Shown here piece by piece: positions 30,113-55,044 of a DNA stretch of 64,000 nt. The translations under genes were made by a program, and so were the position numbers. Each line of letters opens with the position of its first letter. The first letter of the stretch is position 1. This DNA comes from Eledone cirrhosa (taxonomy: Eukaryota), in contig OZ024763.1 of assembly GCA_964016885.1 (NCBI GenBank), forward strand, positions 26,350,001 through 26,414,000, read 5' to 3'. Below the pieces are notes generated by a model. It was not told where the DNA came from. It saw only the letters and a list, made by a program, of their open reading frames with translations, and made no database searches.

Positions 30113-30180
<68 letters not shown>

Positions 30181-30234
30181 TATAAAAGAGAAAACATGAA
30201 TTTTCTGCTTCCCTAACTATATATATATATATAT

Positions 30235-30551: not shown

Positions 30552-30623
<72 letters not shown>

Positions 30624-30626
<3 letters not shown>

Positions 30627-30950: not shown

Positions 30951-31393
30951 AAGATTTTAAACATTCTTAATCAGTAATTCTAATCTTTGTATAAATATGA
31001 TTGAGCTGGATAGATTTCTGAGCTGCCACAAACTGAGTAGTACTACACAATGGTAGGGATACTATGCAACAGCAAGGACAGTACTATATGGCAATTAGAG
31101 AAGCAGTACTATGGAATAAATGAGAGCTGTATGTATGTATGTATGTACTATATGACAATGTACTATATGACAATTAGAGCAGCAGTACTACGCAACAACG
31201 AAGGTAGCAGTACTACGGTACAGTGAGGGCAATACTACACAATAATCAGGGCTATACTATGACAATAAGAGCAACAATACTACAAAATGCGAGCAGTAAA
31301 TACTATATGTATGTATATGTATGTATTACAATCATAAAGCAAAAAAAAAAAAAAAACCGATGTGATATATATATATATATATATACATACATA

Positions 31394-31469
31394 TACAGGG
31401 TGTCCAAAAAGAATGTACTTCAACAGCATTCTAATCAAAGTGTATATACATTTTTGGGGACAACCTGTA
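31394..31469. mobile_element. Tiny Tc1/mariner-type MITE
   Basis: TA-CAGGGTGTCC ... GGACAACCTG-TA; relatives at 40425-40529 and 55279-55322. Confidence 0.7.
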
Positions 31470-31544
31470 TATAAATATTCATATATATATATATCTTTAG
31501 TATATGTATATAAATATTATATATATATATATATATACATACAC

Positions 31545-31644
<100 letters not shown>

Positions 31645-33949
31645 CATACATACATACACATATATATATATACATATATATATACACATATATATATATA
31701 CACATATATATATATATATACACATATATACATCTATTAGCAGAATCGACTAGCAAATAGCTAAAATACTCTACAGCATTTATACAAGGTATATGAAAAA
31801 ATGAGGCATAGTTTGAAAACATTCTGGAAGGTTTGCTGAGATGAGGAATGACAGTTGAGCTGGAAACCCAGAGCCAAGATCACAGAGGTAGGGTGGATCA
31901 AGACATTTAAGAAGAGGATTTTCATTTCAGGTTCAAAGAGGACTGATGGAAAGCCATTCAATCAAATCTAAAGAAAAAAAATCCCCTCTCACAACTTCGA
32001 TATGGTAGGTTTAATTCAAAGAAAAACCACAGAATATTTAATTTTATTTTACTCAGAAATTGCCACAGAAACTACAATATTTTTCTATTGCTGTGTATCC
32101 CAACCACTCTTAAAAATATTTCTTCTTTCTTACAAATAAAAATGCTTAATTATTTTTAAATTGACTCTTAACGGACATGTATCACATGAAACCACATTAG
32201 CAAGACATTCTTGCAAACAACACTTTGACTGCATCACATTAAATATTAAAATCTTTACACTAATACTGTAAATTTTGATAACAATCTGTCCACTAGTAAA
32301 GATACTATAAACATTTCAATTGACCAAAACCTATTTTTTAGATATTTTCTGCTGAATCATTTACAGGATGTTAAGAGTTAATGGAGAAGACAAGAGGAAG
32401 AGAAGAAATTAATAACTTGTGAGATAATGGAAATATTTCATATCAACATATTGATAACTGTGACCTGAGAATAACAAATTGTAGGTATAACAACCACTAA
32501 CATTATACACACTCACAGGCATATATATAAAGGATTATCGAAGTATATATACAAAATGAGTATGTATAATAAACATACACATAGCCCCACTGTATTTTAA
32601 GCTGTGATCTCATCTCAGCATCCATGTAAGAGGAATGTATATATATTTCAGGATTGTTATCCATCTTCAGTATATGCTTTCTTACTAGAAGGAGACTATG
32701 TTTACGTTTATTATACACAAAACATGCTGTATCTATATATATATATATTTATGTGTGTTCACATATTTATCTTTATTCTGTACCACTGTCTTAGGACTAT
32801 CACTAAACAAAAGATTGTGTGTCTGCTCTCTCTCTCCATATCTATCTATCTATATATATAAATATATGTGTGTGTATCCCAGGTCCAATCAGGGGTAACC
32901 AAAGTAAGTAAGGTACTCAATATATAGCAGAGTATAAATGTTTAATATAGAACTGGCTTCTACAGGACTAGAACTGTTTCATTCGAAGGAGATTTCCTTC
33001 AAATGAAACAGTTCTAGTCCTGTAGAAACCATATATATATATATATCTAGAGAGATAGAGAGATAGATAGGTAGATAGATAGAGAGAGAAAGTGATCTAC
33101 TTTCAGGTGTCGTATTCTAAATCCTTCTGCCTGGCATTACTTTTAAGGTTTGTTTACTAAGAAAATATCAACTGGAAACTGGAGATTTGAGGAAGAGGAG
33201 GTAGAATATAGGAAGCCATTCTGGAAAAGGGAGGGAGGAGGGAGAGAGAGATTTGGACAGCTAAAAAAAAAATATAAAAAGAACAAAACAAAAAAAAACT
33301 AAAATAATTTTTTTTCTGTTTCGTTTTAATTAAATTTTATCTGGACCATTACAGCAAGCAAATGACAAAAAGACAGAGAAAGTGCCAAAAGAAGAGAATA
33401 AATAAATAAATAAATAAATAAATAAATAGATAAAGAAAAAGAAAGAAAGAAAAGAAAAAAATAATAATAAAAATAATAATAAAATTAAAAAAATATCATG
33501 CTAACATAATTTCTTAGAAATGCAGAAAAATACTTCTGCATGCAGTGCCCCTATGAGGTCTGAGCAGTCAACAGTAGAAATATAACATCATGCTTGCTAT
33601 GTTTTAAACGCAGTGGAGTACAAAGTTAACAAAATACTGGGCATTAACCCTCTTGGCGCTGTCGGCAACATATGGCGTCGATAGAGTTACCTCCCCTTAA
33701 TACATGACACAGTGTCAAAGGAAGAAATCCATTAAAAAAAAATTCAGAAGGTTAAGAAAGGGGTGGACAAAATAAGTATGTTGTTTTTGTCTGTTTAATT
33801 TTTTTTCGTTTTTTTTTTTTGGAGGGGGCGAGAGACAGGTCTCTTTAAAAATAATTTATATATATTTTTTTATGGAGGTTTCATACAGCGGAGAAATGTG
33901 TATGGCTAATCATTCGGATGCTGCAAGGCTGGTTGCTCTTATAAAAACT

Positions 33950-35295
<1,346 letters not shown>

Positions 35296-35692
35296 AGTTC
35301 ATTCACATTTACCTCCAACTAAATAAGGACACAAAATTGTTATTAACTTACATTGAGATGTCCACCGAGTCTAAAGTCACCAGTCTACAAAGATCCATTA
35401 AAGGGAAAAAATACTAACTCTCAGAAATCGTAGCAAGTTAATGTGATCAATCAAGATATTAGCAAATATCAGTGAACAAAGTTGTAGTGGAGAGGTGAGG
35501 GGTGGGTGGAGGGGAGGGAGGAATGGGATAGGGTGGGCTGGAATGGAGGGGAGAAGTGTGGAGAGATTAGTTTGGAGGTTAGGGTTAGGGTTAGCACTGA
35601 CCTATGGTTGAAGTAGAAAGCACAACACACAGAAAAACAGACAGAGAAACATATGCATATATTATATATAGAGAGAGTAATAATGAGGGTTT

Positions 35693-35735
<43 letters not shown>

Positions 35736-35863
35736 GGGTGTAGGTATAGTAACAATGAGGGTCTTGGTTGGAATTAGTATGTGTGTATATACATATATAA
35801 CCCATGCTAGCATGGAAGATAGATGTTAATCGATGATGGTGATGATGTTATATATATATATAA

Positions 35864-36035
35864 TTGTTTCTACAATAGGCACAAGGCCAGCAATTATTCC
35901 AGTATATTACTGGTACTTTATTTTATCGACCCCCGTAAGGATGAAAGGCAAAGTTAACCTCGGCAGGATTTGAACTCAGAATGGCAAGGGCCGTAACTAT
36001 GCGTCAAAGCATGGCGTCTGACCCTCTACCGATAC

Positions 36036-36077
<42 letters not shown>

Positions 36078-36260
36078 GTTTCTACTTTAGGCACAAGGCC
36101 AGCAATTATCCCAGTGTATTACTGGTACTTTATTTTATCGAGCCCCATCAGGATGAAAGGCAAAGTCAACCTTGGCGGGATTTGAACTCAGATCGTAAAG
36201 GGACGTAACTCTATGCTGGAAAGCATGGCGTCCGACCCTCTACCGATACTGCCAATCCAC
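35864..36260 (-). mobile_element. Two tandem tRNA-SINE copies
   Basis: Each runs tttctac..ggcacaaggcc..ggatttgaactcag..ctaccgatactgcc; reverse complement of 56067-56253. Confidence 0.85.
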
Positions 36261-36413
36261 ATATAATAATAATAAATGTGAAGTCTAAAATATGAAAAGG
36301 GTTCGATAAGGATTATATATATATATATAAACCCAATTCTTTACTTAAACTTTAATCTGTTCTTATGATGAATATATATATAAAGAGAGAGAGAGAGAGA
36401 GAGATAAAGAATG

Positions 36414-36800
36414 GTGTGCTCATGTGCAGAGATGCTATAAAATAGCTTATGAAATGGGATGAAGACTCTTAACCCTTTAGCTTTTACTTTACTCTATATC
36501 TACTATTGTATTTTTGTGGTAAAGGCTTTACCTCACATAATACTGAATCTATGAGATTTTGATATTTATTTTGAGACAAATATCTTAAGCTGGTTATGGC
36601 CAGTTTGAACAGAAAGAGGTGAGAGAATTCTGGCCGGATATGGCTGGTTTAAATACTAAAGAGTTAAGGATGGGAAAAGAAGTTGCCATCAGCTGCTGCG
36701 AGGAATCAAACCTCGTATCTCCCAAACACGCGGTTTGATTCCTCATAGCAGCCGATGGGTCTTCATCCTATTTTATAAGCTATTTTTCAGCATCTCTGCC
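36414..36800. mobile_element. Foldback MITE interrupted by a piggyBac-type MITE (36469-36667)
   Basis: gaagactcTTAA[MITE]TTAAggatgggaaaagaagttgcc versus empty site gaagacccTTAAagacagaaaagaagttgcc near 48535. Confidence 0.85.
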
Positions 36801-37299
36801 ACTCTTTATATTAACTTTATCCCCTCGGCACTGCGTAAAAGCCTGATAGGTTAGCTATATATATATATATATATGTATATGAAATATGTGAAATAATTAA
36901 ACAAAAACCACTATATTATCAATGGATATATAAATGTTATGAAAGATAAAAGGGTTTGTTTTGGGGCAGGGGGTTTTCGTTTGGTGGGGTAAAGAGAGTA
37001 CATTTTTTTTTTTAAACAGTACAATAAAAAATATATTTAATTTCTCCAGAGTGAAGATAAAATAGAAGTGTCATGACAGTGGTGGTGAGGTGGAAATGGA
37101 AATTTTAGTATTTAGATAATATTAACTCGTACTTATTACGTTGGGAGGTTTTAATTTGAATAAGAACCCTTTAAAATGGCGAGTTCTGTTTCATAGAACC
37201 AGGGACAGGTTGAGATAGGTTGGTATCAAAAGGATTGAAATATTTTATCAAAGGATTTTTAAACATCAGAAAAAAAAGGATGAGAGGGGGGGGGGGGGG

Positions 37300-39690
37300 T
37301 AAATGAGTGTGTAAGGGTTTGTGTGATTCTGATGGTTTGTGAATGAGTGTGTAAGGGTATATGTGATTGTGATGGTTTGTGAGTGAGTGTGTAAGGGTTT
37401 GTGTGATTGTGATGGTTTGTGAATGAGTGTGTAAGGGTATATGTGATTGTGATGGTTTGTGAGTGAGTGTGTAAGGGTATGTTTGTGATGGTTTGTGAAT
37501 GAGTGTGTAAGGGTATGTGTGATTGTGATAGTTTGTGAGTGAGCGTGTAAGGGTTTGTGTTATTGTGATGGTTTTTGAATGAGTGTGTAAGGCTTTGTGT
37601 GATTGTGATGGTTTATGAGTGAGTGTGTAAGGGTTTATGTGATTGAGTGTGTAAGGGTTTGTGTGATTGTGATGGTTTGTGAGTGAGTGTGTAAGGGTTT
37701 GTGTGATTGTGATGGTTTGTGAGTGAGTGTGTAAGGGTTTGTGTGATTGTGATGGTTTGTGAGTGAGTGTGTAAGGGTTTATGTGATTGTGATGGTTTTT
37801 GAATGAGTGTGTAAGGGTTTGTGTTATTGTGATGGTTTGTGAATGAGTGTGTAAGGGTTTGTGTGATTGATGGTTTGTGAGTGAGTGTGTAAGGGTTTGT
37901 GTGATTGTGATGGTTTGTGAGTGAGTGTGTAAGGGTTTGTGTGATTGTGATGGTTTGTGAATGAGTGTGTAAGGGTTTATGTGATTGTGATGGTTTGTGA
38001 ATGAGTGTGTAAGGGTTTGTGTGATTGTGATGGTTTGTGAGTGAGTGTGTAAGGGTTTATGTGATTGTGATGGTTTGTGAATGAGTGTGTAAGGGTTTAT
38101 GTGATTGTGATGGTTTGTGAATGAGTGTGTAAGGGTTTGTGTGATTGTGATGGTTTGTGAGTGAGTGTGTAAGGGTTTGTGTGATTGTGATAGTTTGTGA
38201 GTGAGTGTGTAAGGGTTTGTGTGATTGTGATGGTTTTTGAATGAGTGTGTAAGGGTTTGTGTGATTGTGATGGTTTGTGAATGAGTGTGTAAGGGTTTGT
38301 GTGATTGTGATGGTTTGTGAGTGAGTGTGTAAGGGTTTATGTGATTGTGATGGTTTGTGAATGAGTGTGTAAGGGTTTATGTGATTGTGATGGTTTGTGA
38401 ATGAGTGTGTAAGGGTTTGTGTGATTGTGATGGTTTGTGAGTGAGTGTGTAAGGGTTTATGTGATTGTGATGGTTTGTGAATGAGTGTGTAAGGGTTTAT
38501 GTGATTGTGATGGTTTGTGAATGAGTGTGTAAGGGTTTGTGTGATTGTGATGGTTTGTGAGTGAGTGTGTAAGGGTTTATGTGATTGTGATGGTTTGTGA
38601 ATGAGTGTGTAAGGGTTTATGTGATTGTGATGGTTTGTGAATGAGTGTGTAAGGGTTTGTGTGATTGTGATGGTTTGTGAGTGAGTGTGTAAGGGTTTAT
38701 GTGATTGTGATGGTTTGTGAATGAGTGTGTAAGGGTTTATGTGATTGTGATGGTTTGTGAATGAGTGTGTAAGGGTTTGTGTGATTGTGATGGTTTGTGA
38801 GTGAGTGTGTAAGGGTTTATGTGATTGTGATGGTTTGTGAATGAGTGTGTAAGGGTTTATGTGATTGTGATGGTTTGTGAATGAGTGTGTAAGGGTTTGT
38901 GTGATTGTGATGGTTTGTGAGTGAGTGTGTAAGGGTTTATGTGATTGTGATGGTTTGTGAATGAGTGTGTAAGGGTTTATGTGATTGTGATGGTTTGTGA
39001 ATGAGTGTGTAAGGGTTTGTGTGATTGTGATGGTTTGTGAGTGAGTGTGTAAGGGTTTATGTGATTGTGATGGTTTGTGAATGAGTGTGTAAGGGTTTAT
39101 GTGATTGTGATGGTTTGTGAATGAGTGTGTAAGGGTTTGTGTGATTGTGATGGTTTGTGAGTGAGTGTGTAAGGGTTTATGTGATTGTGATGGTTTGTGA
39201 ATGAGTGTGTAAGGGTTTATGTGATTGTGATGGTTTGTGAATGAGTGTGTAAGGGTTTGTGTGATTGTGATGGTTTGTGAGTGAGTGTGTAAGGGTTTAT
39301 GTGATTGTGATGGTTTGTGAATGAGTGTGTAAGGGTTTATGTGATTGTGATGGTTTGTGAATGAGTGTGTAAGGGTTTGTGTGATTGTGATGGTTTGTGA
39401 GTGAGTGTGTAAGGGTTTATGTGATTGTGATGGTTTGTGAATGAGTGTGTAAGGGTTTATGTGATTGTCATGGTTTGTGAATGAGTGTGTAAGGGTTTGT
39501 GTGATTGTGATGGTTTGTGAGTGAGTGTGTAAGGGTTTATGTGATTGTGATGGTTTGTGAATGAGTGTGTAAGGGTTTATGTGATTGTGATGGTTTGTGA
39601 ATGAGTGTGTAAGGGTTTGTGTGATTGTGATGGTTTGTGAGTGAGTGTGTAAGGGTTTATGTGATTGTGATGGTTTGTGAATGAGTGTTT
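37300..39690. repeat. 40-bp GT-rich minisatellite, about 59 copies, with a 120-bp trimer higher-order repeat
   Basis: Unit GTGATTGTGATGGTTTGTGA(A/G)TGAGTGTGTAAGGGTTT(A/G)T; sequence repeats every 120 nt from about 38300 to 39660. Confidence 0.97.
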
Positions 39691-40424
39691 ATATAAATGT
39701 TTGTATGAGTGAGTGGTTTTCTTTTGATACCTTAAAACAAGACTACAGAGGAGGATGAAGGTAAAATAAAGTGACAAGTGGACATTTTAGTAAATAATAA
39801 TAATACTGACAACTACTTCAATTATAACAACTGATGGTATATATTTTAGAAAAATAGGGGCTGAAAGTAAATTCCCCAAAAAGGAAGGGGTGAGGTGTGG
39901 AGGGGTAAGGCAGGGTGTGGTACGGTGAGGTGTGGTGTCAAGGAGTGAAGTACAGATGAAAAGTTTAATTAAACCTGTGGCTCTCTTTCTATTTTTAGTC
40001 TGGTGGACAATAAACACATTAGAATACAACGAAGAACACAGATCTAAAACCGAAGGGCAGGAGCAGGGACTCTTAAATAAACACACCATAACTATTGATA
40101 TCGAAACCTAATGTACCGAACACAGCAAAATAAGAGAAAAAAAAACCTGGACTGATGGGGGAAAAAAAATCTACTTTATTACAGAATTATTTTTAATAAA
40201 AAGTAAGCGAATGAATATAGAAATAAATTGAACTATAATTAGTATTTCAATTTACCTAACGAGTTAAGACTTGTAAAACAAAGATTCAATGACCAAACAC
40301 AATCTTTACTGAGAAAACATCATCAACATGTTATATTTCTATGGCTTTTTTATTATTATATAACAAAACAGATTCTTTCTGAGACATGTATGTGTGTGTA
40401 TATATATGTATATAAATAAATACA

Positions 40425-40529
40425 TACACGGTACCCCCCAAAAATGTATACACACTTCAACAGCATTCTAATAAATATTGCCTGTACAGGTTATCAAAGT
40501 GTATATACATTTTGAGGGGACACCCTGTA
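40425..40529. mobile_element. Tc1/mariner-type MITE, longest copy here
   Basis: TA-CACGGTACCCCCCAAAAATGTATA ... TATACATTTTGAGGGGACACCCTG-TA. Confidence 0.7.
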
Positions 40530-40542
40530 TATATACATACAT

Positions 40543-40593
<51 letters not shown>

Positions 40594-40916
40594 AACATAT
40601 ACATATATATTTCTAAATTAAGCAGAAAGCTGGCAAAGTTGATTATACCAACTCCAGTACACTACTGGTACTTTATTTTATCGACCCTGGAAGGAAGAAA
40701 GGTAAAGCTGACCCAGGCAGGATTTCAACTCAAAATGTAAAAGAGTGGGAAGAAACTAAAGCTCTACCAATTCTGCCAATCCACCTCTCATATATATTCC
40801 TTTATTACGGTTAAGTAGTGAGTCTTGTAATTCTGGAGGTTCATCTCGAGTTTCAAGATGAGCAGACATATTTAAACTAAAACTTTCTATTATCAATCTT
40901 ATCTCAGAATATTTTG

Positions 40917-41324
40917 TTAACCCTTTAGCATTTACATTACTCTATATATACTATTGTATTTTCATGGTAAAGGGTTTATCTCACATAATATCAAATCTGA
41001 GATTTTAATGTTATTTATTTTGAGAACAATACCTTAACATCAGTATGAGGGGCCAGTTACAGCTGGTTTGAACAGAAAGAGGTAAGAAAATTCTAGCCGG
41101 ATACAGCTAGTGTAACCCTTTAGCATTTACATTACTCTATATTTCCTATTGTATTTTCATGGTAAAGGCTTTATCTCACATAATATCGAACCTATGAGAT
41201 TTTGGTATTTATTTTGAGAACAATATCTTAATATTAGTAAGGGTTCCCGGTTACAACCGGTTTCAACAGAAAGAGGTGAGAGAATTCTGGCCAGATACGG
41301 CTGGTTTCAATGCTAAAGGGTTAA
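40917..41324. mobile_element. Head-to-tail dimer of the piggyBac-type MITE
   Basis: TTAA-CCCTTTAGCATTTAC at 40917 and a second start near 41113; terminal AAAGGG-TTAA at 41324. Confidence 0.85.
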
Positions 41325-41468
41325 GGTATGTTCCAAACACCAGCTTGCTTACATTTACTAAAATCCCTCTAAATTCTTTTATTTTCAAAATTAACATGAA
41401 AGCTTAAGCAATATATTTCTCATCAGAAATATAATAATGAAACGGTTAATTTTTGTAGTCCAGAATGG

Positions 41469-41539
<71 letters not shown>

Positions 41540-41694
41540 ATCCTTGAATTGTCTGATGGATCTGTGTGTGTAGAAGAAACTACAGTGCAACAAGACTCAC
41601 TACTTAGCCGTAATAAATGAATATTAAAACTCTACTTTGGTATTGAGTATTCTTTTCCTTCATCCATCAACTACATACACATAAACACACACAC

Positions 41695-41738
<44 letters not shown>

Positions 41739-41741
<3 letters not shown>

Positions 41742-42345
41742 TGGCTGCCAACTCGTTTTCGAGTACGGCCACTACTTTATATCCATGTAGGAGAACCCCT
41801 ACCGATGCGCTGAACGAGTGTGACTTTTTAGTCCAGCCAGCGACTTGAAAACTCTGGTACAAACGCTACACTTGTGACAATTATTGACACATAGTGCTGG
41901 GCCCATGGTAGCATGTGACGACAAGTGCAGAGAGATCTCCAGATATAAAGCAATGCCTGTGCCGTGAAGCTTTTATAGTGAGCAAAGGCACTGCACAAAG
42001 CCAGTCCCACTCTCTTAACCAAGATGATATTTACCAAAAAGAAGAACAAGTCAACATCATTGGATACCATCAGGGTTGCAGGTGTTATATCAGAGTTTTC
42101 CTTCTCCTAGAATTCTGCCTTGACAAAGGCTAAGGGGTCATCTCTCCCGGTGATTTTGGATGGCCATTGACTCTTAAGAGCTCCTTTGCCCTTTGACAGG
42201 TTTTGTTTTTAGTCCTGCAGGATGTCCAAAGTCACCCTCCTCACCAAGAAACCTTGGTGGGGTTGCCAGTTTAGTCGCCAACGACCCGACCATGAGACAG
42301 GTTGTACTGGGATACATGTTACCAGTAGCACCAACTGGTGACCTG
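41739..42345. mobile_element. Unclassified interspersed repeat, possibly the antisense 5' region of an RTE-like element; diverged copy at 47238-47530
   Basis: Shared blocks ggctgc(c)aactcg.tttcgagta, ctttttagtcc, gaagctttt, catcattggat and gttgcagg..ttatatcagagt in the same order at both loci. Confidence 0.6.
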
Positions 42346-42438
42346 ACACAAATATATATATATACACACACATATCTATATTATATAAAATATTGAAGCC
42401 ATCAAAATGAGTGAGTGATGGGCTCGTCCATCTGCCTC

Positions 42439-42473
<35 letters not shown>

Positions 42474-43710
42474 ACAAGGAATTTACATCCTGAGAGGAGG
42501 AAACTAAATAGGTTTTACTGCTTTCAAACTCAAACATAAACACAAACTCAACAACAACAACAACAACAGATGGTTGGTTTGAGATGTTAAGACAGTGGCG
42601 GCGAAGGAGGCTGGGGCAGGGGGCGAGGGAGGACAGTGGCGCAATGTTACAGGGGAAGCGCTCCACTATGTCGGAAGGATTAACAAGCAGCTAAAAGAGC
42701 CATCAAAGATTCAAGTCACACAAAAGACAACATGCAAATTGTGAAAATACAAAAAAAAAAAAAAGATAGGTAGTGGTGGTGGTGGTAATGAAAAGGAGGG
42801 GGGGGGGACAAAAACACACACAGACACACATACAAAAAAATTAAGAAATTAAAATCCAGCCTTTTAAAGTCATGCATAATTTAATTAGATTCCTGCATAA
42901 TTAATTAGATACCTTGAAAGAAGTAACGAAATAAACATTTAACTACTTTAAAGAAGGGAAGAGGTGCAGGGAGGAGTTGGGTCTTGTAGGTGGGTTGGGC
43001 AGTGTTGAGGGATTGGGGGGGGGGTTCTGTGAGGGGTGGGAGTCTTGCTGGAGGTGGGACATTGGTGAAAGGTGGGCATTAGTGAAGGAGTGGAGCCTTG
43101 CTGAGGTCGGAGCTAGCGGGGAGGGATTGCTGAGTGACAGGGCATTGATGGAGGAGATTTTACTGAGTGATGAGGCCATGCTGTAGGGGGCGGGACATTG
43201 TTAAGGGCGTGGGGACATTAGCAAGCAGTGGGAGGGTTATGGGAGACGGAGGAGAGCAGGGAGGGATTACTGAGTGACAGGGCATTGATGGAGGGGTCTT
43301 ACTGAATGGTGAGGCCTTGTTTGGCACGGGGACAGAGTCTTGCTGGTGGTATGGGGCCCTGCTGGAGCTCATAATCAGGGAGTTAGATGACAACAGAGCC
43401 TAACCTGATTCTCACAAATACAAAAAAAAAAAACAATAAATGAAACAATAGAAAACCTCGAATGTTATGTTTCTATGGAAACAAGAAAGATTCCTTGACG
43501 AGATACTTAACGAGAACAATGATGAGAGATGAAACATTGTGTAATGGTAGAGAGATTTGGGAGAGGTTTCATAGTCAGGAGGAGAGGGATATATACAGCA
43601 GCAGAAGTCATAAGGTATATAGATATGTGTGTGTGTATATGTACATATATATACATATATATACATACATATATACATACACATATTTATACATACACAT
43701 ATCTATTCAT

Positions 43711-43758
<48 letters not shown>

Positions 43759-43787
43759 CAATAAAGATATATAAAACGTGATAGAAC

Positions 43788-43832
<45 letters not shown>

Positions 43833-44644
43833 GTATAATAAAACACCTAAGTCAGGTAGTAGTTAGTGGTCAGGTAGGTGTGGTCAGAGACATACAGTGA
43901 CATCAATTAGTTTAAAGACAAGATTACCCAGATGATTAAATGTTAATTATTTCTGCTTAATTAATCACTAACGATTCAAACTATAAACGTTAGTGACAAA
44001 CAGGAAAATGACTGCTGCTGACATTTCTAAACAACTTTCGTTTAAGAATATCACAGAATACAAAATCCAATCCTATCATGACCAAACCTCCAAAAGCAAC
44101 TAAACAAATTTCGGGCTTCTGTGATGTATTGCATACCAAAACAAAACAGCACATTTATTTCTGAAAAACTGATGAACTCGCATACAATTTGTTCAGGAAA
44201 TAATTGTTTCTACTTTAGGCACAAGGCCAGCAATTACTCCAGCACATTACTGGTACTTTATTTTATCGACCTCATAAGGATGAAAAGCAAAGCTCACCCC
44301 AACGGGATTTGCACTCAGAACATAAAGGCCATTCTGAAGATGACAATCCAACCAAAGATCTTGGAGAAAACTTTGCTGCTGTGTGTAAAGGCTGTGGTAG
44401 TCTTATACATAAAATCAAGGCCATGTTTGTGTCAAGGTCATCGTGGTGGTTTTATACACAAGATCAAAGCCATGTACCAATGTCATCACTCTAGTCTTAT
44501 ACTTAAGATCAAGGCCATATGCCTAAGTCACTATGGTAGTCATGTACCAAGGTCACCATGGCAGTTTGTAGCTCAGGTCAAGTTCAATGTGACAGTTTTC
44601 TACCTCAGGTCAAGGTCACTGTGGCAGTTTTCTACCATCTGACC

Positions 44645-44840
44645 AATGTCATCAGAGCAGTCTTGTACATGAGATCAATGTCATCAGGGCAGTCTTGTAC
44701 ATGAGATCAAGGTCATCAGGGTAGTCTTGTACATGAGATCAAGGTCATCATGGCAGTGTTGTACATGAGATCAAGGTCATCAGGGCAGTGTTGTACATGA
44801 GATCAAGGTCATCAGGGCAGTCTTGTATATGAGATCAAGG
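44645..44840. repeat. 32-bp minisatellite, about 6 copies, with decayed copies back to about 44395
   Basis: GTCATCAGGGCAGTCTTGTACATGAGATCAAG repeated. Confidence 0.9.
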
Positions 44841-45140
44841 CCCCGTGACTACTAACAATTTATATAGAGAGTAAAACCTTCTTTTTCTATTTTTATATAG
44901 TTTGAATTGTAGGCAATTTAAAATAACTGGGAAACTGAGAATAACTTTTAATCATCAATGTAATATCGTATTTAAAATAATTAAGGTTATTGGCTATAAA
45001 AGTAATTAAACAGGTCAGAGGAGGGGGAATATGTAAAAATGTTGGGGGAACAGGGAAGGGGTAAAAAATAAAATATATACAAGGAATAATAATAATAATA
45101 GTAAAAACAAAAACAAAACAAAGGTCACGTGGGGAATTAC

Positions 45141-45368
45141 CTGTATTCGTTTTTTCTTTAAAATTCTGCTGCGCATCTCATTGACTGCATATTGTGCAGT
45201 GTCCATACTGGTGAAATATATTAGTGCTCTGCCTTTGCAGCGGTCAATCACAGCATGACTAACTTCTCCATAACGACCAAACTGTTGACAGAGAAGTTTC
45301 TCGGTCACCAACTCCGACAGGTTGTCCAACCAAACACAGTTGGTCGGCATACTTTTCCCAAACCCCAA
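45141..45368 (-). CDS. spen: SPEN exon, 228 nt, RRM4 (LGFGKSMPTNCVWLDNL...KKRIQ)
   Basis: Acceptor ctcccttttag, donor CAG|GTAATT; phase 0-0. Confidence 0.95.
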
Positions 45369-45654
45369 CTAAAAGGGAGAAAGTTTGATAAAAAAAAAGA
45401 AAAGAAAAGAAAGAAAAAACAAGAATTAGAAAAGAAGATCAAAGATGTATAAAAATGACAGAAGAAAATAAACAAAATAGTTACTCTTTAAGTAATTATT
45501 CTAACACAAGGGGACCAAGACCTCTGGTGTTACACAGTAATACAGAAGATCTGACTTTCCACAGGTATAGGCCAAAGCTGAAGCATATATACAGTATGCA
45601 CTACAGCACTTCACCCTTCCATACATCTTCCATGAGGACAGGCTGAAGTATACA

Positions 45655-46490
45655 TCCAGTGAAGCCACCAGTCCACACTGTAAAGTGGTTGTGATGGTGA
45701 CAGCAAAAAAAACCCAGTCCACACTGTAAATGGTCGTGTAGAAGTCATGACAAAAAGCACCAGTCCACACTGTAAAGTGGCTGTGATGGTGCCATGACAA
45801 AAACCACTCAGTCCACACTGTAAATGGTCATGTAGAAGTCATGACAAAAAGCACCAGTCCACACTGTAAAGTGGTTGTGATGGTGCCATGACAAAAACCA
45901 CTCAGTCCACACTGTAAATGGTCATGTAGAAGTCATGACAAAAAGCACCAGTCCACACTGTAAAGTGGTTGTGATGGTGCCATGACAAAAACCACTCAGT
46001 CCACACTGTAAATGGTCATGTAGAAGTCATGACAAAAAGCACAAGTCCACACTGTAAAGTGGTTGTGATGGTGCCATGACAAAAACCACTCAGTCCACAC
46101 TGTAAATGGTCATGTAGAAGTCATGACAAAAAGCACAAGTCCACACTGTAAAGTGGTTGTGATGGTGCCATGATAAAAACCACCCAGTCCACACTGTAAA
46201 TGGTCGTGTAGAAGTCATGACAAAAAGCACCAGTCCACACTGTAAATGGTCATCTAGAAGTCATGACAAAAAGCACCAGTCCACACTGTAAATGAGCATG
46301 TGGGTATCATGATAAATAGCACCCAGTCCAGACTGTAAATGAGGTTGGCCTTAGGAAGGGCATCCAGCTGTAGAAACCAAGCCAGAATTAGTTCTGTATG
46401 AACAAGACATGGTCACCTGACCTGGCATTGCCCACAACAGGACAACTCATCTAACCCATGTTAGTGTGGAAAAATGATGATGATGATGAT
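45655..46490 (+). repeat. 94-bp dimeric tandem repeat (CAGTCCACACTGTAAA core) running into an RTE/SINE 3' tail
   Basis: Period 94 (gccatgac at 45791 and 45885); continues into GGAAGGGCATCCAGCTGTAGAAA and (GAT)n. Confidence 0.85.
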
Positions 46491-46990
46491 GGTTAGAAGG
46501 ACCCCTCAGTTTGTGTCAAAAGACATGACAAGCTCTCTTCACTCGGTATGACATAGGTGAGATATAGATCCCTTGGCCTGTCTGGCAGGTCAGTAGCCCC
46601 ACTTCAGCACTGACTTGGTCTATGTAGACCAGTCCAACCCTTGCAAGTAGGGAAAGTGGACATTAAATCATGAACTAAGCTCAATATTTCTCAGGGGTTT
46701 TCCAACCTGGAGGTCCCACAAAGATAGTACTGGAGTCGTGTGGTGTTGTGTGGTGTGGTGTGGTGTGGTGTGGTGTGGTGTGGTGTGGTGTGGTGTGGAT
46801 GGGTTATTTGTTCAACCTGGTCACAGCTGAGCTTTATAAGGAAATCAAATTTTCCTAAGAGAAACCTCAGTATTTTTTAAATTTTAATGTTTTACCAAAA
46901 TTACTTGAATATACCAACATTATTATCCTTATTATTAATGAATGTTAACGAGATTAATTAATTAATTAATAAATAGAAATGATAAAGAAC

Positions 46991-47116
46991 CTTAATTTTA
47001 TTAGCTCCTATGTGCTCCCCTTCCATTTTGCGTAATGACTTGACAACACTGGTGATATCTGCATACTGTACAAATGCATAGGCAGATACTGCACCCTGAC
47101 GTTTGATATCAATATC
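46991..47116 (-). CDS. spen: SPEN exon, 126 nt, RRM3 (DIDIKRQGAVSAYAFVQY...NKIK)
   Basis: Acceptor ttctctctctccag, weak donor AAG|GTTCTT; RNP1-like YAFVQY; phase 0-0. Confidence 0.93.
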
Positions 47117-47166
47117 CTGGAGAGAGAGAAATGAGAGAGCATTAGTTTCAAAATTGCAAATAACTC

Positions 47167-47202
<36 letters not shown>

Positions 47203-47782
47203 CACACACACATACGCATATACATAGATACTTACATGATGGCTGCAACTCGATTTCGAGTAATGCCATCACTTGATACTTAAGCATGGGCATTACGGAC
47301 GTGGCTTTTTAGTCCTGGTAGGGACTTGCCTATAACCAGCAATGTCATGCATCTCACAAAATGTCACATATCAAGCGATGCCAGTGCTTGAAGCTTTTTT
47401 AAGTGAGGAAAGGCTTTGCACGGGGCCAATCCACTCTCTGAACATCAAATGCATTTACCCAAAAAGATGAACTGATCTACATCATTGGATGCAAATGAAG
47501 TTGCAGGTTTTATATCAGAGTGAGCTTCTCATACATATAAGAGAGATGCAAATTATTGTCAATGCTCCACTGTTAAGTGGTGACAATGTTGATAGTGGTG
47601 ATGGTGACTGTGGTTATGATGCTAATGGTCGTGGTAATGATGGCAGTGATGATGATGATGATGATGGTAATGATTGTGATAATGATGATTATGACCATGA
47701 TGACAGATTGACTGACAGACTTGACAGATCAATTGACATAATTAACATAATTTCAGATGAAAGAGCAAAGCTTGAAACTTAC

Positions 47783-47931
47783 TATAATTTCCCCAAATGA
47801 CTTAAAGCGGTCCCTCAACTCTTGTGTTGTAATCTCCTTCTCCAGGTTGCCAACAAACAATGTCCGTGTGGCCTTGGGATGATACTCATCACACTCAGCC
47901 TCAGGAGGACGGAATTCATTATCTTCAACTT
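47783..47931 (-). CDS. spen: SPEN exon, 149 nt, start of RRM3 (EYHPKATRTLFVGNLEK...FGEII)
   Basis: Acceptor ttgttaccag, donor GTAAGT; RNP2 motif LFVGNL. Confidence 0.95.
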
Positions 47932-48427
47932 CTGGTAACAATACAGTTAAACAAAAGAAAAGAAAAGAAACGCTTATTAATCTCATAACCACTGGAAATC
48001 CCAACACCACATCCAACATGTACACATATATACACACATACATTATTCAGACATCATATATATATATATATATATAAAAAAACAAATAATGAAACGAAAT
48101 TAAATTTCGTTTCGTTTGTAACTCACTTTTGTATGACTGACGCTTAAACAATTAAGTTAAAAATGTACATCTACATATGCATACTGAAATACTAGTGTGT
48201 ATATGAATACACACACGTATACATATGTAGGTGTAACAAGTCTTTCACTGGTTGCTTTACTGTGAGCAACCCAGCTATTCTGTATGTAAACACACAGACA
48301 AACCGGTTTTTAGAGTCATACTGGTTTTCGGGGGAACACCTTCCCTCTATATATATATATATATATAAGAAATGGTGACCCTAACAGACCTGCTTTTTCT
48401 ACAACAAAATTTTCTCCTCTATCTTTC

Positions 48428-48477
<50 letters not shown>

Positions 48478-48487
48478 CTAATATATA

Positions 48488-48712
48488 TGTGTGCTCATGT
48501 GCAGAGATGCTACAAAATAGGGTGAAGTGAAGTGAAGACCCTTAAAGACAGAAAAGAAGTTGCCATCGGCTGCTATGGGGAATTGAACCCCATATCTCCT
48601 AGCTGGTCTGGGGGATATGGGGTTCAATTCCTCATAGCAGCTGATAATAACTTCTTTTCCAGTCTTTTAAGGGTCTTCATCCTATTTTATAGCATCTCTG
48701 TGCTTGAGCACA
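48488..48712. mobile_element. Foldback MITE, about 225-bp imperfect palindrome
   Basis: gtgtgctca..cagagatgcta..aaaatagg..gaagacccttaaa..gaaaagaagtt..gaattgaaccccatatc is mirrored on the right arm. Confidence 0.85.
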
Positions 48713-48832
48713 CTATTTTTTATATTAACTTTATATTTTCAATGCTTCAAGTCAGAGAAAGTGACTACATATCAGATATATATATATAGTAATCATTTGA
48801 TATCTCAGGTGTAGAGCCCTTGGTCCTTGTTA

Positions 48833-50007
48833 AACAAAGACCCCTAACCTACACACTCATGTGTAGTATAACTAGAGAGATTTAAATAAAGACTACTAAC
48901 CTACACCTTCATGTGTACCGTAACTAGAGAGATTTAAATAAAGACTACTAACCTACACCTTCATGTGTACCGTAACTAGAGAGATTTAAATAAAGACTAC
49001 TAACCTACACTTTCATGTGTACTGTAACTAGAGAGATTTAGATAAAGACTACTAACCTACACCTTTATGTGTACTGTAACTAGAGAGATTTAAATAAAGA
49101 CTACTAACCTACACCTTCATGTGTACCGTAACTAGAGAGATTTAAATAAAGACTACTAACCTACACCTTCATGTGTACTGTAACTAGAGAGATTTAAATA
49201 AAGACTACTAACCTACAGCTTCATGTGTACTGTAACTAGAGAGATTTAAATAAAGACTACTAACCTACACCTTCATGTGTACTGTAACTAGAGAGATTTA
49301 AATAAAGACTACTAACCTACAGCTTCATGTGTACTGTAACTAGAGAGATTTAAATAAAGACTACTAACCTACACCTTCATGTGTACCGTAACTAGAGAGA
49401 TTTAAATAAAGACTACTAACCTACACCTTCATGTGTACTGTAACTAGAGAGATTTAAATAAAGACTACTAACCTACAGCTTCATGTGTACCGTAACTAGA
49501 GAGATTTAAATAAAGACTACTAACCTACACTTTCATGTGTACTGTAACTAGAGGGATTTAAATAAAGACTACTAACCTACACCTTCATGTGTACTGTAAC
49601 TAGAGAGATTTAAATAAAGACTACTAACCTACACCTTCATGTGTACTGTAACTAGAGAGATTTAAATAAAGACCACTAACCTACACCTTCATGTGTACTG
49701 TAACTAGAGGGATTTAAATAAAGACTACTAACCTACACCTTCATGTGTACTGTAACTAGAGGGATTTAAATAAAGACTACTAACCTACACCTTCATGTGT
49801 ACTGTAACTAGAGAGATTTAAATAAAGACTACTAACCTACAGCTTCATGTGTACTGTAACTAGAGAGATTTAAATAAAGACTACTAACCTACACCTTCAT
49901 GTGTACTGTAACTAGAGAGATTTAAATAAAGACTACTAACCTACACTTTCATGTGTACCGTAACTACAGAGATTTAAATAAAGACCACTAACCTACACCT
50001 TCATGTG
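48833..50007 (-). repeat. 52-bp minisatellite containing the exon end and 5' splice site of exon 49993-50081 (23 donor copies)
   Basis: ctaacctaca occurs from 48844 to 49988, a spacing of 22 x 52; the last copy is the functional donor. Confidence 0.95.
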
Positions 50008-50081
50008 CCATAACTTTTATTTTCTTCCCAAAAAACATTTTATCTTGAGAAGCTTCCAACGCCTTTGCAGCATCCTCTGGT
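49993..50081 (-). CDS. spen: SPEN exon, 89 nt, end of RRM2 (PEDAAKALEASQDKMFFGKKIKVMAHEGV)
   Basis: Acceptor ttctgttgcag, donor TAG|GTTAGT; phase 2 to 1. Confidence 0.93.
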
Positions 50082-50190
50082 CTGCAACAGAAGAAATTAA
50101 AGAAATTTAAGACATTTTGCAAAGAATTCATTAAATATTGTGAACTTTTAATCATTTCATTTTTTTTATTTACATATGGGACAATGGTGG

Positions 50191-50222
<32 letters not shown>

Positions 50223-50532
50223 GTGGTAGTAGTGCTGAGTGATAATGATGGTAGTGGAGTGGGTAGGATAATTTTCATAATGATGATGGTAGTGGTTGAG
50301 ATGTTTTTGGTGGTGGTTGTGAAGGTGATTTTCGTGATGGTGGTAGTAGTGATGGTAAAGTTAGTGGTGGTAGTGGTTAAGACAATTGTGGAGATGGTGG
50401 TGGTTGAGATGAGAATTTCGGTGTTGGTGATAAAGATGGTGATAATTAAGATGATGATCACGAAGACAATATTAATGATGATAATTTCTAGAAATGAAAT
50501 TAAGAAAAGAATGGACATAAGAAGCTACTTAC

Positions 50533-50644
50533 TTTCTAAAACTGACCACAGAATATCGTTCTTCTCCTTGTCCTAGCACCTGGACTGAAGTTACTTTACC
50601 ATGCTTTTTATATTCATGAAAAAGCCCATCCCTTAGGCTAGTAT
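50533..50644 (-). CDS. spen: SPEN exon, 112 nt, RRM2 core (DTSLRDGLFHEYKKHGKVTSVQVLGQGEERYSVVSFRK)
   Basis: Acceptor cttttactttacag, donor GTAAGT; translated by hand; resembles vertebrate DTSLKDGLFHEFKKFGKVTSVQ. Confidence 0.95.
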
Positions 50645-50672
50645 CTGTAAAGTAAAAGAAATAATGATAATA

Positions 50673-51320
50673 ATGGTTTTGGATTTAGACACAAGGCCAC
50701 CAATCTGAAGGGGGAGAGAGGAAAGTCGGTTAAATCAACCTCAGTACATTACTGGTACATTATTTTATCGACCCCATGAGGATAAAAGGCAAAGCTAACC
50801 TTAGCGGGATTTTAACTCAGACCGCAAAGGGCCGTAACTCTATGCATCAAAGCATGGTGTCCAACATTCTACTGCCTTAATAATAATAATAATAATAATA
50901 GTTTCTACTTTTGGCACAAGGCCAGCAATTACCCAGTGCATTACTAGTACTTTATTTTATCGACCCCGTAAGGATGAAAGGCAAAGTTGACCTCGGCGGG
51001 ATTTGAACTCAGAATGGCAAGGGCCGTAACTCTATACTTCAAAGCATGGCGTCCGACCCTCTACCGATACTGCCAATTCACCACCCTATCTACTGCCTTA
51101 ATAATAATAATAATTGTTTCTACATTTGGCACAAGGCCAGCAAATACTCCAGTGTATTACTGGTACTTTATTTTATCGACCCCGTAAGGATGAAAGGCAA
51201 AGTTACTGCCTTAATAATAATAATAATGATTTTTTACTATAGGCACAAGGTCAGAAATTTGGAGGGGAAAGAAAAGTGGACCCCAGTGCATTACTGGTGC
51301 TATATTTTATTGACCCCTCC
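50673..51320 (-). mobile_element. Cluster of four tRNA-SINE copies/fragments separated by (AAT)n tails
   Basis: Repeated (g/a)cacaagg.c...atcgacccc...aaaggcaaag blocks. Confidence 0.85.
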
Positions 51321-51346
51321 ACCCAAGATTTCAAGGAGCTACTTAC

Positions 51347-51525
51347 CACTGGATCGAAGAGGTAATCCCATCACACAAATACCAAGTGGCTTCCGTTCCG
51401 TGCTCTGTGTTTCTGCCGTGGAGGATTTACTTGACATCATACTCTGACTCTCCGATTTCGAGTGTTTCTGCCCCGACACAGACACTACAGGCACTCGCCG
51501 GAGACTGCCTCGACTACTCGTTCGA
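51347..51525 (-). CDS. spen: SPEN exon, 179 nt, start of RRM2 (KPLGICVMGLPLRSS)
   Basis: Acceptor ttgttgtag, donor G|GTAAGT; phase 2 to 1. Confidence 0.92.
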
Positions 51526-51545
51526 CTACAACAAATGATATACAC

Positions 51546-51602
<57 letters not shown>

Positions 51603-51716
51603 GCACACACAACATATATATATTTATATATATATATATATATATATATACACAATATATATATATATATAATATACACACACAATATATATATATATAT
51701 ATAATATACACACACA

Positions 51717-51747
<31 letters not shown>

Positions 51748-51853
51748 ACATATATATATATATACACACACACACAACATATATATATATATATATACAC
51801 ACACAACATATATATACACACACAAAACATATATATATACATACACACAAAAC

Positions 51854-51900
<47 letters not shown>

Positions 51901-51951
51901 ACATATATATATATACACACACACAACATATATACATATATATACATACAC

Positions 51952-51989
<38 letters not shown>

Positions 51990-53625
51990 GTCTCTACTTT
52001 TGGCACAAGGCCAGCAATTACCCCGGCGGGATTTGAACTCGGACTGTAAAGGGCCTTAACTCTATGTTGCAAAGCATGACGTGCGACCCTCTACCGATAC
52101 TGCCAATCAATAGTAATAATAATAATAATAATAATAATGGTTTCTTATACAGGCACAAGGCCAGCAATTTGGGGGTCGTGAAGTCGATTAAATCAACCCG
52201 AGTACATTGATGGTACTTTTTTTTTTTTTTTTTTTTTCGACCCTGTAAGGAATGAAAGGCAAAGTTAACCTCGGCGGGATTTGTTCTCAGAATATACAAC
52301 GCCATAAACATAATAATAATGGTTTCTGTTTTATGCACAAGGCCAGCAAGTAAATCGACAGGATTTGAACTCAGAACGTAAAGGAACGTTACTATACGCC
52401 ACAGAGCATGTTGCTGGACGCGCTACCGATCCAGCCTTATACACAATGATAATAATGGTTTCTGATTTAGACACAAGGCCAACAATTTAGAGAAGGGGGA
52501 AAAGTCGATTAATTCAATCAGAGCATTACTGGTACTCTATTTTATCGATACTGTAATGATCAAAGGCAAAACTAACATCAGCTAGATTCGAACTTAGAAC
52601 GTAACGTAAAGGAACGTAAGTAAATGCAGCAAAACATGTTGTCTGACGCTCTACCGATTCTGCCAAGCTACAGCCTTTATGTACACAATAGTAATACGCC
52701 ATCGTTACTTTTGTTATGTTCATTATAACAAGAATAACAAAACAAAAGAATTAAATACACGGGAGATTACTCTACTAAAGGGGGAAATAACTAGCTGTCT
52801 CTGATTACCTCCCCTGAAGGCAAGGGAGATAACTATTCAAATTGAAAATTTTTGTTTTTATTTCGAATTATTTATAATAATTATTTTCTAAATGAATGAA
52901 TGAATGAATGAATTAATTAATTAATTAATTAGTAAGTTATTACAACAGGAGTTTTAACAAACGAACAGTTTCGATAAACGTTCGTTTTGCTTTTCTGTTG
53001 ATGTCCACGAACCATTTATAATTGGTTCATAATAAAGCAGAATTTCTGTCTTACAACATGGTCGCTTATTCTGAACAAACAGGATATATACAGTAAGGGG
53101 ACAGAGAACCCTGGGTTAAAGAGAGAGAGGGAGAGAGAGAAAGAGTGGAGAAATAAGAGGGAAAAGATTGAGTTTTATACATGTTTAATAATTATTTCGA
53201 ATTTGATTTCAAATTTAGACACAAAGCCAACAATTTGTGGAGAGGTAGGAAAGTCAATTATATGGACCTCAGTACATTACTGGTACTTTATTTCATCGAC
53301 TTCGAAAGAATGAAAGGCCAAGTTGACCTCAGTAGAATTTTTTTTTAAACTCAGACGGTAGTAAAGAGCTGGAACGAATACTGCCAAGCATTTTGTCTGA
53401 CGCTCTAATGACTTTCCTAATTTCCTTCGACCTTACAGTTTCAAATTTAAGATCAAGGCCTGCAATTTCGAGGGAAAGGCTAGGGAAAGTCGATTGCCTT
53501 TACCCCAGTACATAACTGGTATTTTACTTTTAGCGACCTTTGAAGGAAGAAAAGCAAAGTTAACCTTGTGGAATTTTTTTAACACAGAGCCTGCCCAGAA
53601 TTTTGTCCAACAACTCTGCCAACCT
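51990..53625 (-). mobile_element. Cluster of about six tRNA-SINE copies/fragments with unique spacer DNA
   Basis: Same diagnostic blocks near 52000, 52150, 52335, 52470, 53220 and 53455. Confidence 0.75.
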
Positions 53626-53758
53626 CTATCGACCTAATTAAACGTTTAATTAATTAGTATAATTAAACCAATCAAGTAATTACTGACTGCCAACCTCTAT
53701 CGACCTAATTAAACGTTTAATTAATTAGTATAATTAAACCAATCAAGTAATTACTGAC
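53616..53758 (-). repeat. 71-bp tandem duplication of the intron start, including the donor GTCAGT
   Basis: ctgccaacctctatcgacc...gtaattactgac at 53616 and 53687. Confidence 0.93.
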
Positions 53759-54244
53759 CTTCTGGAATGTGATCTGGACCGACTGCTTCCCGACGAGGAT
53801 TGACTGTAACCACTACTGGAACTGGAGCGGGATCGACTCCGACTGGAGGAACGAGAAACTGATACAGAACCCTTACGTCTGCTGCTGTGCCGACTGCTCG
53901 CTTGTGAATTCGAACAGGTCGGTGATAGTGTGGGCACCCGGGGCCGATCAAAGCTCTCCCGATCGCTGGCATACTGTTCGTGATAGCGTTCATCAAAGGA
54001 ATGCTTCTGCAAGCTGCTTGTGATGCCGCTGGCCACAGCTGCAGTACTGTTGCCTCCCCCGCTTACAGGCACTACACTGCTCTGGTTCACCCCAGCACCA
54101 CCGCTGACACCACCGGCACTCGTGCTTCCTCCACTGACCGCTGTTGTTGCACCACTCCCCGTACCACTAACGCTGATAACGTTCGCTGCACCCGTGACAG
54201 TGCCCGACACACTGGCACCAACAGATTTTGGTCGTTGAGCTGTC
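53759..54244 (-). CDS. spen: SPEN exon, 486 nt, phase 2-2, Gly/Ser-rich then RS-rich
   Basis: Acceptor tttttctctattgcag, donor AG|GTCAGT; frame of ORF 53743..54210. Confidence 0.88.
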
Positions 54245-54590
54245 CTGCAATAGAGAAAAAAGAGAAGAATACATTTAAAGACAATTCATATAGCATCATC
54301 ATCATCATCATCATCATTACCATCAGACTCACCATCATCATCATTACCATCATCATCATACTTATCACTAACACTAACATCACTATCATAATCATCTCCA
54401 TCGTTACTATCACCCTCTCCATCACCATCATTAGCATTATCAACATCATAATCATCAACATTTTTCCAGTACACTTTCTCTAACAAAAGTCAGATGGGTT
54501 GTCAACAAACTGGGTCACTACTTTAGTGGAGTTATTGACCCTTCAGATTGGCCAGGAGCCTGCAGCTCCCTTTCTTAAAATAAACTACAT

Positions 54591-54826
54591 AACCATTTAT
54601 ACAGCCCTTGACAAAGTGGACTGCTAAACCATTTATTCAGCCCTTGTCCAAATGAACTTCTAAACCATTTATCCAGCCCTTGTCCAAATGGACTTCTTAG
54701 CCATTTATCTAGTTCTTGACAAAATGGACTTCTAAACCATTTATCCAGCCCTTCACTAAATGGACTTCTAAATTATTTATTCAACCCTTGACCAAGTGGG
54801 CTTCTTTACCATTTATTCAGTCCTTG
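54591..54826. repeat. 36-bp minisatellite, about 6.5 copies
   Basis: aaccatttat.cagcccttg.caaa.tggacttcta at 54591, 54627, 54663, 54699 and 54735. Confidence 0.85.
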
Positions 54827-54879
54827 TTACAAAGCAGTCCCCCACACAATATGATAGTCATGATCTTTGACCAACTTAC

Positions 54880-55044
54880 CGCTCATATTGCTTGGTAAAC
54901 GTGGTTCTGTTGCGTTGGTAAGACCTCGACTGATGCTGCACTTGCTCATCATAAGGGTATCTGTTCTCAAACTGGTTTGTTTCCCTTGCGCTGCTGCTGC
55001 CACTGTAATAATACTCCCTGTATGTGTCTTCTTCATCCAAGCTA
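54880..55044 (-). CDS. spen: SPEN exon, 165 nt, phase 2-2 (SLDEEDTYREYYY...FTKQYER)
   Basis: Acceptor ttttgttttacag, donor GTAAGT, open frame joining the next exon; not in the ORF track in this frame. Confidence 0.8.

Follow-up and report, generated by a model that had tools for sequence, protein, structure and literature searches.

The window analysed here is a stretch of 64,000 nucleotides from Eledone cirrhosa (assembly GCA_964016885.1, contig OZ024763.1, positions 26,350,001 to 26,414,000 of the forward strand), and all positions below are counted from its first letter. Its minus strand carries twelve modelled exons (11843..55044) of a gene encoding the msx2-interacting protein, also known as split ends (SPEN), which contain 5,718 codons without a stop; the gene continues beyond them. 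The preliminary description had named the gene SPEN, and homologue matches bear this out: the exon at 47931-47783 matches a scallop 'split end' (88%), the large SPEN exon matches the msx2-interacting protein of Octopus sinensis (95%), and the model has 86-97% identity to the SPEN proteins of O. sinensis and O. bimaculoides in three test segments. Three consecutive exons on the minus strand, located from homologues (by tblastn in the case of the second) and from a spliced contig of the run designated X4, are the subject of this analysis: an upstream exon of 112 nt (50533..50644), a coding exon of 89 nt that encodes the end of the second RRM (49993..50081), and a downstream exon of 149 nt (47783..47931) of which the acceptor AG ends at 47932. 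Joined as 50644-50533, 50081-49993 and 47931-47783, they contain no stop. The label 'RRM2' for the exon at 49993..50081 follows the numbering of human SPEN; in the scallop homologue, one RRM-like segment lies farther upstream.

Several other features of the gene and its surroundings were observed. A single coding exon of 14,033 nt (13507-27539, minus strand) includes an internal 21-nt coding repeat of the DHQKVHS type (18207-18727) in approximately 25 copies. Four short SPEN models of O. bimaculoides (P0054, P0057, P0058 and P0061; 603-708 aa) all end where the exon at 29125-28941 ends, the donor of this exon is likewise of the GTTAG type, and P0064 is the same C-terminal piece; these models may represent either a split annotation or a short isoform with RRMs only. 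On the plus strand, a stretch of 158 codons free of stops (58517-58993) resembles the C-terminal region of a reverse transcriptase from a non-LTR retrotransposon.

The junction between the 89-nt exon and the intron that follows it is straddled by a minisatellite on the minus strand (48830..50007; TRF period 52, 22.7 copies, 96% matches), the first unit of which spans the exon/intron boundary of SPEN exon 50081-49993. The motif TGTAG/GTTAG, with the slash at the boundary, is found at 23 of 23 sites from the first donor G at 49992 to the last at 48848, and the spacing between neighbouring sites is exactly 52 nt in all 22 intervals; the 22 extra donors that had been described after this exon are thus all present at 52-nt steps. 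The 22 full units comprise 11 distinct sequences with 48-52 of 52 positions identical to the majority sequence; the inner 20 are homogenised, with 0-2 differences from it, compared to 4 in each of the end units (1 and 22). Across the array there are 42-44 stops per reading frame. The authentic 5' splice site (49985..49995, with GT at 49992-49991) reads TAG/GTTAGTGG, and was recognised as such because the loose end of the X4 contig before 49993 is 47902-47931. The pseudo-donors (48841..49943, recurring every 52 nt from 49940 to 48848) read TAG/GTTAGTAG in 20 instances, with G at +7 in one other and with G at both +6 and +7 in the last. Weak pseudo-acceptors accompany them in each unit (48849..49963): TAG at -23 in 22 of 22 units, CAG at -17 in 15, and AAG at -6 in 18. 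Of the two AGs that had been described 23 and 17 nt before each donor, the former is therefore a constant feature and the latter has been lost from 7 of the 22 units. The exact match of the unit to the last 15 nt of the exon holds as described, and the true length of the copied exon tail is probably 23 nt (49993..50015), with changes in the preceding 8 nt in this species, because the tail of the unit aligns with the exon back to 50015 with few changes and the unit of a second organism, organism B, matches all 23.

The donor had also been said to be kept in every copy, which is accurate for TGTAG/GTTAG (23 of 23), but position +6 is changed in the last copy, position +7 varies, and the invariance is not clearly beyond chance. 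Twelve variant alleles occupy 11 of the 52 columns of the unit, and since the copies share variants, 23 copies do not amount to 23 observations. Within the array, the probability that the 10 fixed donor columns would be free of variants is P = 0.07, and that of an invariant run of at least 11 columns anywhere in the unit is P = 0.64. When some three further differences from organism B (an eye count) are included, P becomes 0.04 for positions -5 to +5, 0.06 for positions -3 to +6, and 0.56 for the GT alone. The donor window was chosen after the fact, with P ranging from 0.04 to 0.08 overall, so that the apparent conservation of the donor beyond chance may be taken as a weak hint, at most marginal.

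The presence of the array in DNA was assessed with read-derived contigs from five runs in two studies, of which X1, X2, X4 and X5 were compared; X3, which shares its sample with X1 and X2, was omitted. The best share among these runs was 0.46, and none of them was listed as RNA, a blank that says nothing about expression. Contigs were placed on positions 49881-50180 only, which hold the exon and the first two units, and joints between an array donor and 47931 lie outside this direct view. X1 and X2 are two DNA-like runs of one sample, which may be the source of the assembly itself. The idea that the assembler inflated the array or made it up draws on that possibility, and on the reach of the compared contigs, which extend to the first two units and none of which crosses the array. 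Against it, one X1 contig follows the assembly without any difference from the intron upstream of the exon, across the exon and unit 1, and on into unit 2; short contigs of high depth in X1 and X2 carry four variant combinations at unit columns 33 and 46; and 11 distinct sequences are found among the 22 units. The depth of these short contigs per assembled copy is 3.9-6.0 in X2 (8 classes) and more scattered, 4.7-11.2, in X1 (7 classes). Their summed depth in X1 divided by the depth of the flank is 15.2 and 15.7, where the assembly contains the corresponding words 15.4 and 15.9 times; contig depth is not copy number, but these depths match the mix of variants that was assembled. An invented array is unlikely, and we regard an assembly artefact of either kind as extremely improbable.

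Splicing at the junction was observed in X4, which derives from another sample of the same organism, its kind of run being unrecorded. The single matching contig, 4,981 nt long and with a depth of 16.3, is identical to the window throughout 49993-50081, and its loose ends match, with 30 of 30 letters each, the start of the exon at 47931 and the end of the exon at 50533. In this one spliced contig, the first, authentic donor is used and is joined in frame to the exon at 47931. X4 gives no cover over 49881-49990 and no second junction, which is evidence neither for nor against other splicing, since contigs drop rare variants. The peptide across the canonical junction is HEGV-EVEDNEF. Among the 15 of 16 cluster members that were listed, 12 annotated SPEN proteins reach across this junction, from Octopus species that may or may not carry the array, and all 12 exit at HEGV in the same way, with no peptide derived from the unit; the linker at the junction is 17 residues long, as it is in 25 of 26 more distant homologues that span the junction. 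Six SPEN models of O. sinensis (P0050, P0051, P0053, P0055, P0059 and P0060) add VLFP at the junction, an insertion consistent with use of an acceptor 12 nt upstream, at the intron's far end; where that acceptor would sit (47932-47945, minus strand), the window has TG rather than AG.

The consequences predicted for splicing within the array were upheld in the main. Read-through to a later donor adds a G and then TAG, one codon on, and inclusion of the 23-nt or the 17-nt microexon yields VTVHMKV or VHMKV followed by a stop. Premature stops of these kinds are expected to trigger nonsense-mediated decay (NMD). The broader assertion that every alternative use truncates the protein does not hold strictly, for the AAG at -6 (in 18 of 22 units) would give an in-frame insert of 6 nt (AAG/GTGTAG/), and splicing to the TAG directly before GT would add nothing and regenerate the donor; the acceptors for both of these events are very poor.

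The quality of the sites was estimated from the number of matches, out of 11, between each donor and the U1 consensus. The authentic donor scores 7 of 11, within the range of 5-9 of the 12 donors of the gene, and the 22 pseudo-donors score 8 in 20 instances, 7 in one and 6 in one. The extra donors look functional by this measure; GTs scoring at least 8 of 11 number 43 in 24 kb of ordinary intron. For the acceptors, the AG-free zone extends 33-464 nt at the real sites (12 of 12), and 19-22 nt at the AG at -23, 4 nt at the AG at -17, and 9-15 nt at the AAG at -6 of the units. The share of pyrimidines at the AG at -23 (0.65-0.70) is inside the range of the real acceptors (0.60-0.95), and sites that match this AG in quality occur 1.34 times per kb of ordinary intron. 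The sole YTNAY motif, with its branch-like A, lies 16 nt before the AG at -23, nearer than the distance of 19-37 nt that is reported to be typical (PMC10078293). A credible 3' splice site for a poison cassette was not found among the AGs of the units at -23 and -17, given AG-free zones of 19-22 or 4 nt as opposed to at least 33 nt at 12 of 12 real acceptors. A recursive-splicing ratchet point at TAG/GT was rejected as a candidate, the share of pyrimidines there being 0.40-0.50 and all 22 units having a further AG just 3-5 nt before it. No stable fold was found in the pre-mRNA comprising the exon and five units (z = +1.63; 97 of 100 shuffled sequences fold as well), and models in which the sites are gated by structure or rescued by A-to-I editing were dropped because no unusual fold stability was detected.

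A related array was recognised in X5, a run from organism B in another study, with five matching records. One contig of 65 nt (depth 75.6) is exactly identical to the last 23 bases of the exon, the donor and 19 bases of the intron (50015-49974, 0 differences), and its overlaps with a contig of 48 nt (depth 60), checked by eye, give a closed loop of 53 words, equivalent to a unit of 53 nt. A third contig of 349 nt (depth 17.9) enters from the loop and contains a further donor, in a unit that exceeds the loop by two bases. It then passes into unique sequence by way of a near-copy of the exon tail that agrees in 12 of 13 letters, the letters having been reverse-complemented and compared by eye. 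By ratios of depth, which is a rough guide, the loop is run approximately 3-4 times before the longer terminal unit. In the unit of organism B, the T-rich run is followed by three additional bases, and positions -23 to -16 still carry the letters of the exon; the unit of the window resembles the longer terminal unit of organism B minus three bases (55 - 3 = 52). The donor 10-mer is intact in both organisms, and the rest of the unit and the copy number (estimated by rough depth in organism B) differ. Two other X5 records (19 and 22), which match over 18-42 letters and are either not collinear or have loose ends that do not agree, were discounted as due to chance. The exon body is absent from the matching contigs of organism B, and we infer that its array sits at SPEN, a location that fits because the 65-nt contig starts exactly where exon and unit diverge. 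The terminal microhomology motif of organism B has no second copy in the window, where its one match is the exon itself; the far end of the window's array has diverged, so that the seed is visible only in organism B. On comparison of the two sequences, it is likely that a duplication seeded by microhomology predates the split between the species and that each lineage then amplified a variant of its own; a parallel origin, with one seed shared by both arrays, is a less likely alternative.

Repeated donors at a splice junction are known from several other genes. In intron 7 of human F7, a 37-bp VNTR is reported to contain 5-9 identical donors, with the exon-intron boundary in its first unit (Borensztajn et al. 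2006, PMC1557585). Only the most upstream of these donors is used, the 4-8 pseudo-sites being functional but silent even at a consensus value of 91, and this preference for the first donor was shown by mutagenesis with approximately 50 minigenes (PMC1557585). The SPEN array is like F7 in that the authentic donor is the most upstream, is seen in use, and is repeated head to tail; it differs in having 23 copies of 52 nt with 15-23 exon bases per unit, compared to 5-9 copies of 37 bp with 4 exon bases in F7, and in that the F7 findings come from a mammal and approximately 50 minigenes, whereas splicing of the octopus SPEN array is known from one contig. The same report describes 25 pseudo-sites in intron 2 of IFI6 (6-16) and 15-20 repeats in intron 13 of CBS, in each of which two pseudo-sites are used, these being the next two after the authentic donor, and minisatellites of LMNB2 and of PDGF intron 4 in which the authentic site only is in use (PMC1557585). 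With 22 repeated donors behind the authentic one, SPEN has a copy number similar to these four (10-25), and its one contig shows the authentic donor. In amphioxus, 'mirages' in Adh3 and the globin genes BflGb6 and BflGb9 are described as minisatellite-like tandem duplications of exon-intron boundaries that have AG/GT in their units and variable copy number, and that leave regular splicing undisturbed, only the authentic site being used in Adh3 and the globins (PMC3087553). The SPEN array shares with mirages an invertebrate host, homogenised inner units and divergent end units; it differs from them (units of 10-160 bp) in phylum and in that organism B has a related array built from a different variant of the unit. 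The nearest precedent for a tunable switch is an intronic VNTR of human CUL4A, the length of which is tied to altered splicing and lower expression (PMC12776774, PMC11701250); the passages that describe it mention no donor in the unit, and the effect of length is reported for CUL4A, not for the SPEN array. Head-to-tail units of 10-160 nt, a boundary in the first unit, a repeated splice signal and homogenised inner units are all present at SPEN, and the array is anatomically a member of the class of F7-type VNTRs and mirages, a kind already known from human and amphioxus. A literature search, outside of which lay subscription papers and supplements, found no paper title on the octopus SPEN repeat, and no paper was found that combines a VNTR, a cryptic splice donor, copy number and nonsense-mediated decay (most subscription papers being outside this search).

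The gene is rich in repeats of this general type: 12 arrays of minisatellite type make up 41% of 36.6 kb of its introns. With these 12 arrays of one gene as a small baseline, a start within 25-60 nt of a donor is expected for one or more of them with a probability of 0.15-0.33, so that an array across a junction is no large surprise here. The best fit to the observations is a model in which an intronic minisatellite that straddles a SPEN junction arose from a chance near-match and is tolerated, the first donor being used and the extra donors ignored, and we consider this model probable with good confidence. As a first step, microhomology of approximately 13 nt between the exon tail and the intron some 50 bases further on would have initiated a tandem duplication through slippage or unequal exchange, at a time when this species and organism B had not yet split. 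Each lineage would then have amplified and homogenised a different variant of the unit, leading to 22 copies of 52 nt here and to a 53-nt loop run approximately 3-4 times plus a longer terminal unit in organism B. In splicing, exon definition from the acceptor at 50081 would commit U1 to the most upstream donor, as in F7; leakage to later donors would meet TAG one codon on and be removed by NMD at little cost, and a selected regulatory role would not be needed. This model is favoured by the canonical spliced contig, the 12 of 12 Octopus proteins without unit peptide and the 17-residue linker; by the weak acceptors of the units, the value of P = 0.07 for donor invariance, and introns that are 41% repeat with a 71-nt duplication at another donor; and by the loop and near-copy exit in organism B, together with the precedents of F7 and amphioxus (PMC1557585, PMC3087553). 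Counting against it are the slightly better U1 match of 20 of 22 pseudo-donors than of the real donor (8 versus 7 of 11), the use of two pseudo-sites in IFI6 and CBS (PMC1557585), the derivation of the splicing evidence from one contig of one run, and the conservation of the donor 10-mer in both species (P = 0.04, in a window chosen post hoc).

A rival reading is that the extra sites leak unselected, such that the nearest pseudo-donors (49940 and 49888) or the 23-nt microexon are used measurably and NMD lowers SPEN somewhat. Most pseudo-donors equal or exceed the real donor in strength, read-through and both microexons stop within 1-7 codons, and the use of the next two pseudo-sites in IFI6 and CBS makes some leakage plausible (PMC1557585); set against this, the authentic site only is used in F7, LMNB2, PDGF and the amphioxus Adh3 and globin genes (PMC1557585, PMC3087553), the microexon acceptors are weak, and the contig that crosses the junction is canonical, all of which leaves measurable leakage unlikely. 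Quite improbable, in our estimation, is a selected control element, kept because the number of units sets the dose of SPEN by way of poison splicing and NMD, or because the array sequesters U1 snRNP. An array apparently common to two organisms with the donor intact, values of P between 0.04 and 0.08 for donor invariance, the dependence of splicing on VNTR length reported for CUL4A (PMC12776774, PMC11701250) and the reported frequency of poison-exon control among RNA-binding proteins speak for such a role, but the sequence of the unit and the copy number differ between the two organisms, the AG at -17 has been lost from 7 of 22 units, the quality of the acceptors is at background level, and there is no stable fold to gate the sites (z = +1.63, with 97 of 100 shuffles as good). 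The cellular U1 pool is large relative to 22 sites on the transcripts of one gene, which argues against a sink. It is similarly doubtful, to a high degree, that the array has been kept across octopus species as a heritable dial, more units giving more splicing to stop-bearing forms and so setting the amount of SPEN message that survives NMD. Among the readings offered by the preliminary description, that of a tolerated duplication is thus supported, and those of an NMD switch, a poison microexon and a U1 decoy are without direct support, given the contig with the first donor, the weak microexon acceptors, the marginal conservation, and the publication of the same anatomy from human and amphioxus.

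As a tolerated repeat, the SPEN array illustrates cleanly, in an invertebrate, a peculiarity that is already known, and it suggests that a mollusc can prefer the first donor even when 22 donors of equal or slightly greater strength follow it. Organism B offers a rare view both of the start of such an array, in its microhomology with the exon tail, and of its drift, in the amplification of different variants per lineage. The SPEN array would also be a natural substrate for studies of 5' splice-site choice outside mammals. If it were true that the number of units tunes NMD of SPEN, the array would be a copy-number dial on a developmental regulator.

Other intronic repeats of the gene have features of their own. 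At 53616-53758 (minus strand) there is a perfect two-copy duplication of 71 nt, the unit of which starts at the GT of the donor of the exon at 54244-53759 and the second copy of which is without the exon's AAG in front; this duplication could be either recent or an assembly slip. An array of 9.2 kb (2562-11798; 227.5 copies of an AT-rich unit of 42 nt) fills most of an intron, beginning 44 nt past the donor at 11842, and its unit holds motifs of a T-run followed by AG. The intronic arrays lean toward the 5' ends of their introns (mean relative position 0.26, one-sided p = 0.004, n = 10 without the array studied here), in a post hoc test on the introns of one gene within 1291-55044 that counted two neighbouring arrays as one and excluded the array at 364-1045. 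Further intronic minisatellites lie at 37302-39688 (unit of 40 nt), 45666-46347 (94 nt), 44395-44840 (32-45 nt), 54590-54826 (36 nt) and 364-1045 (92 nt).
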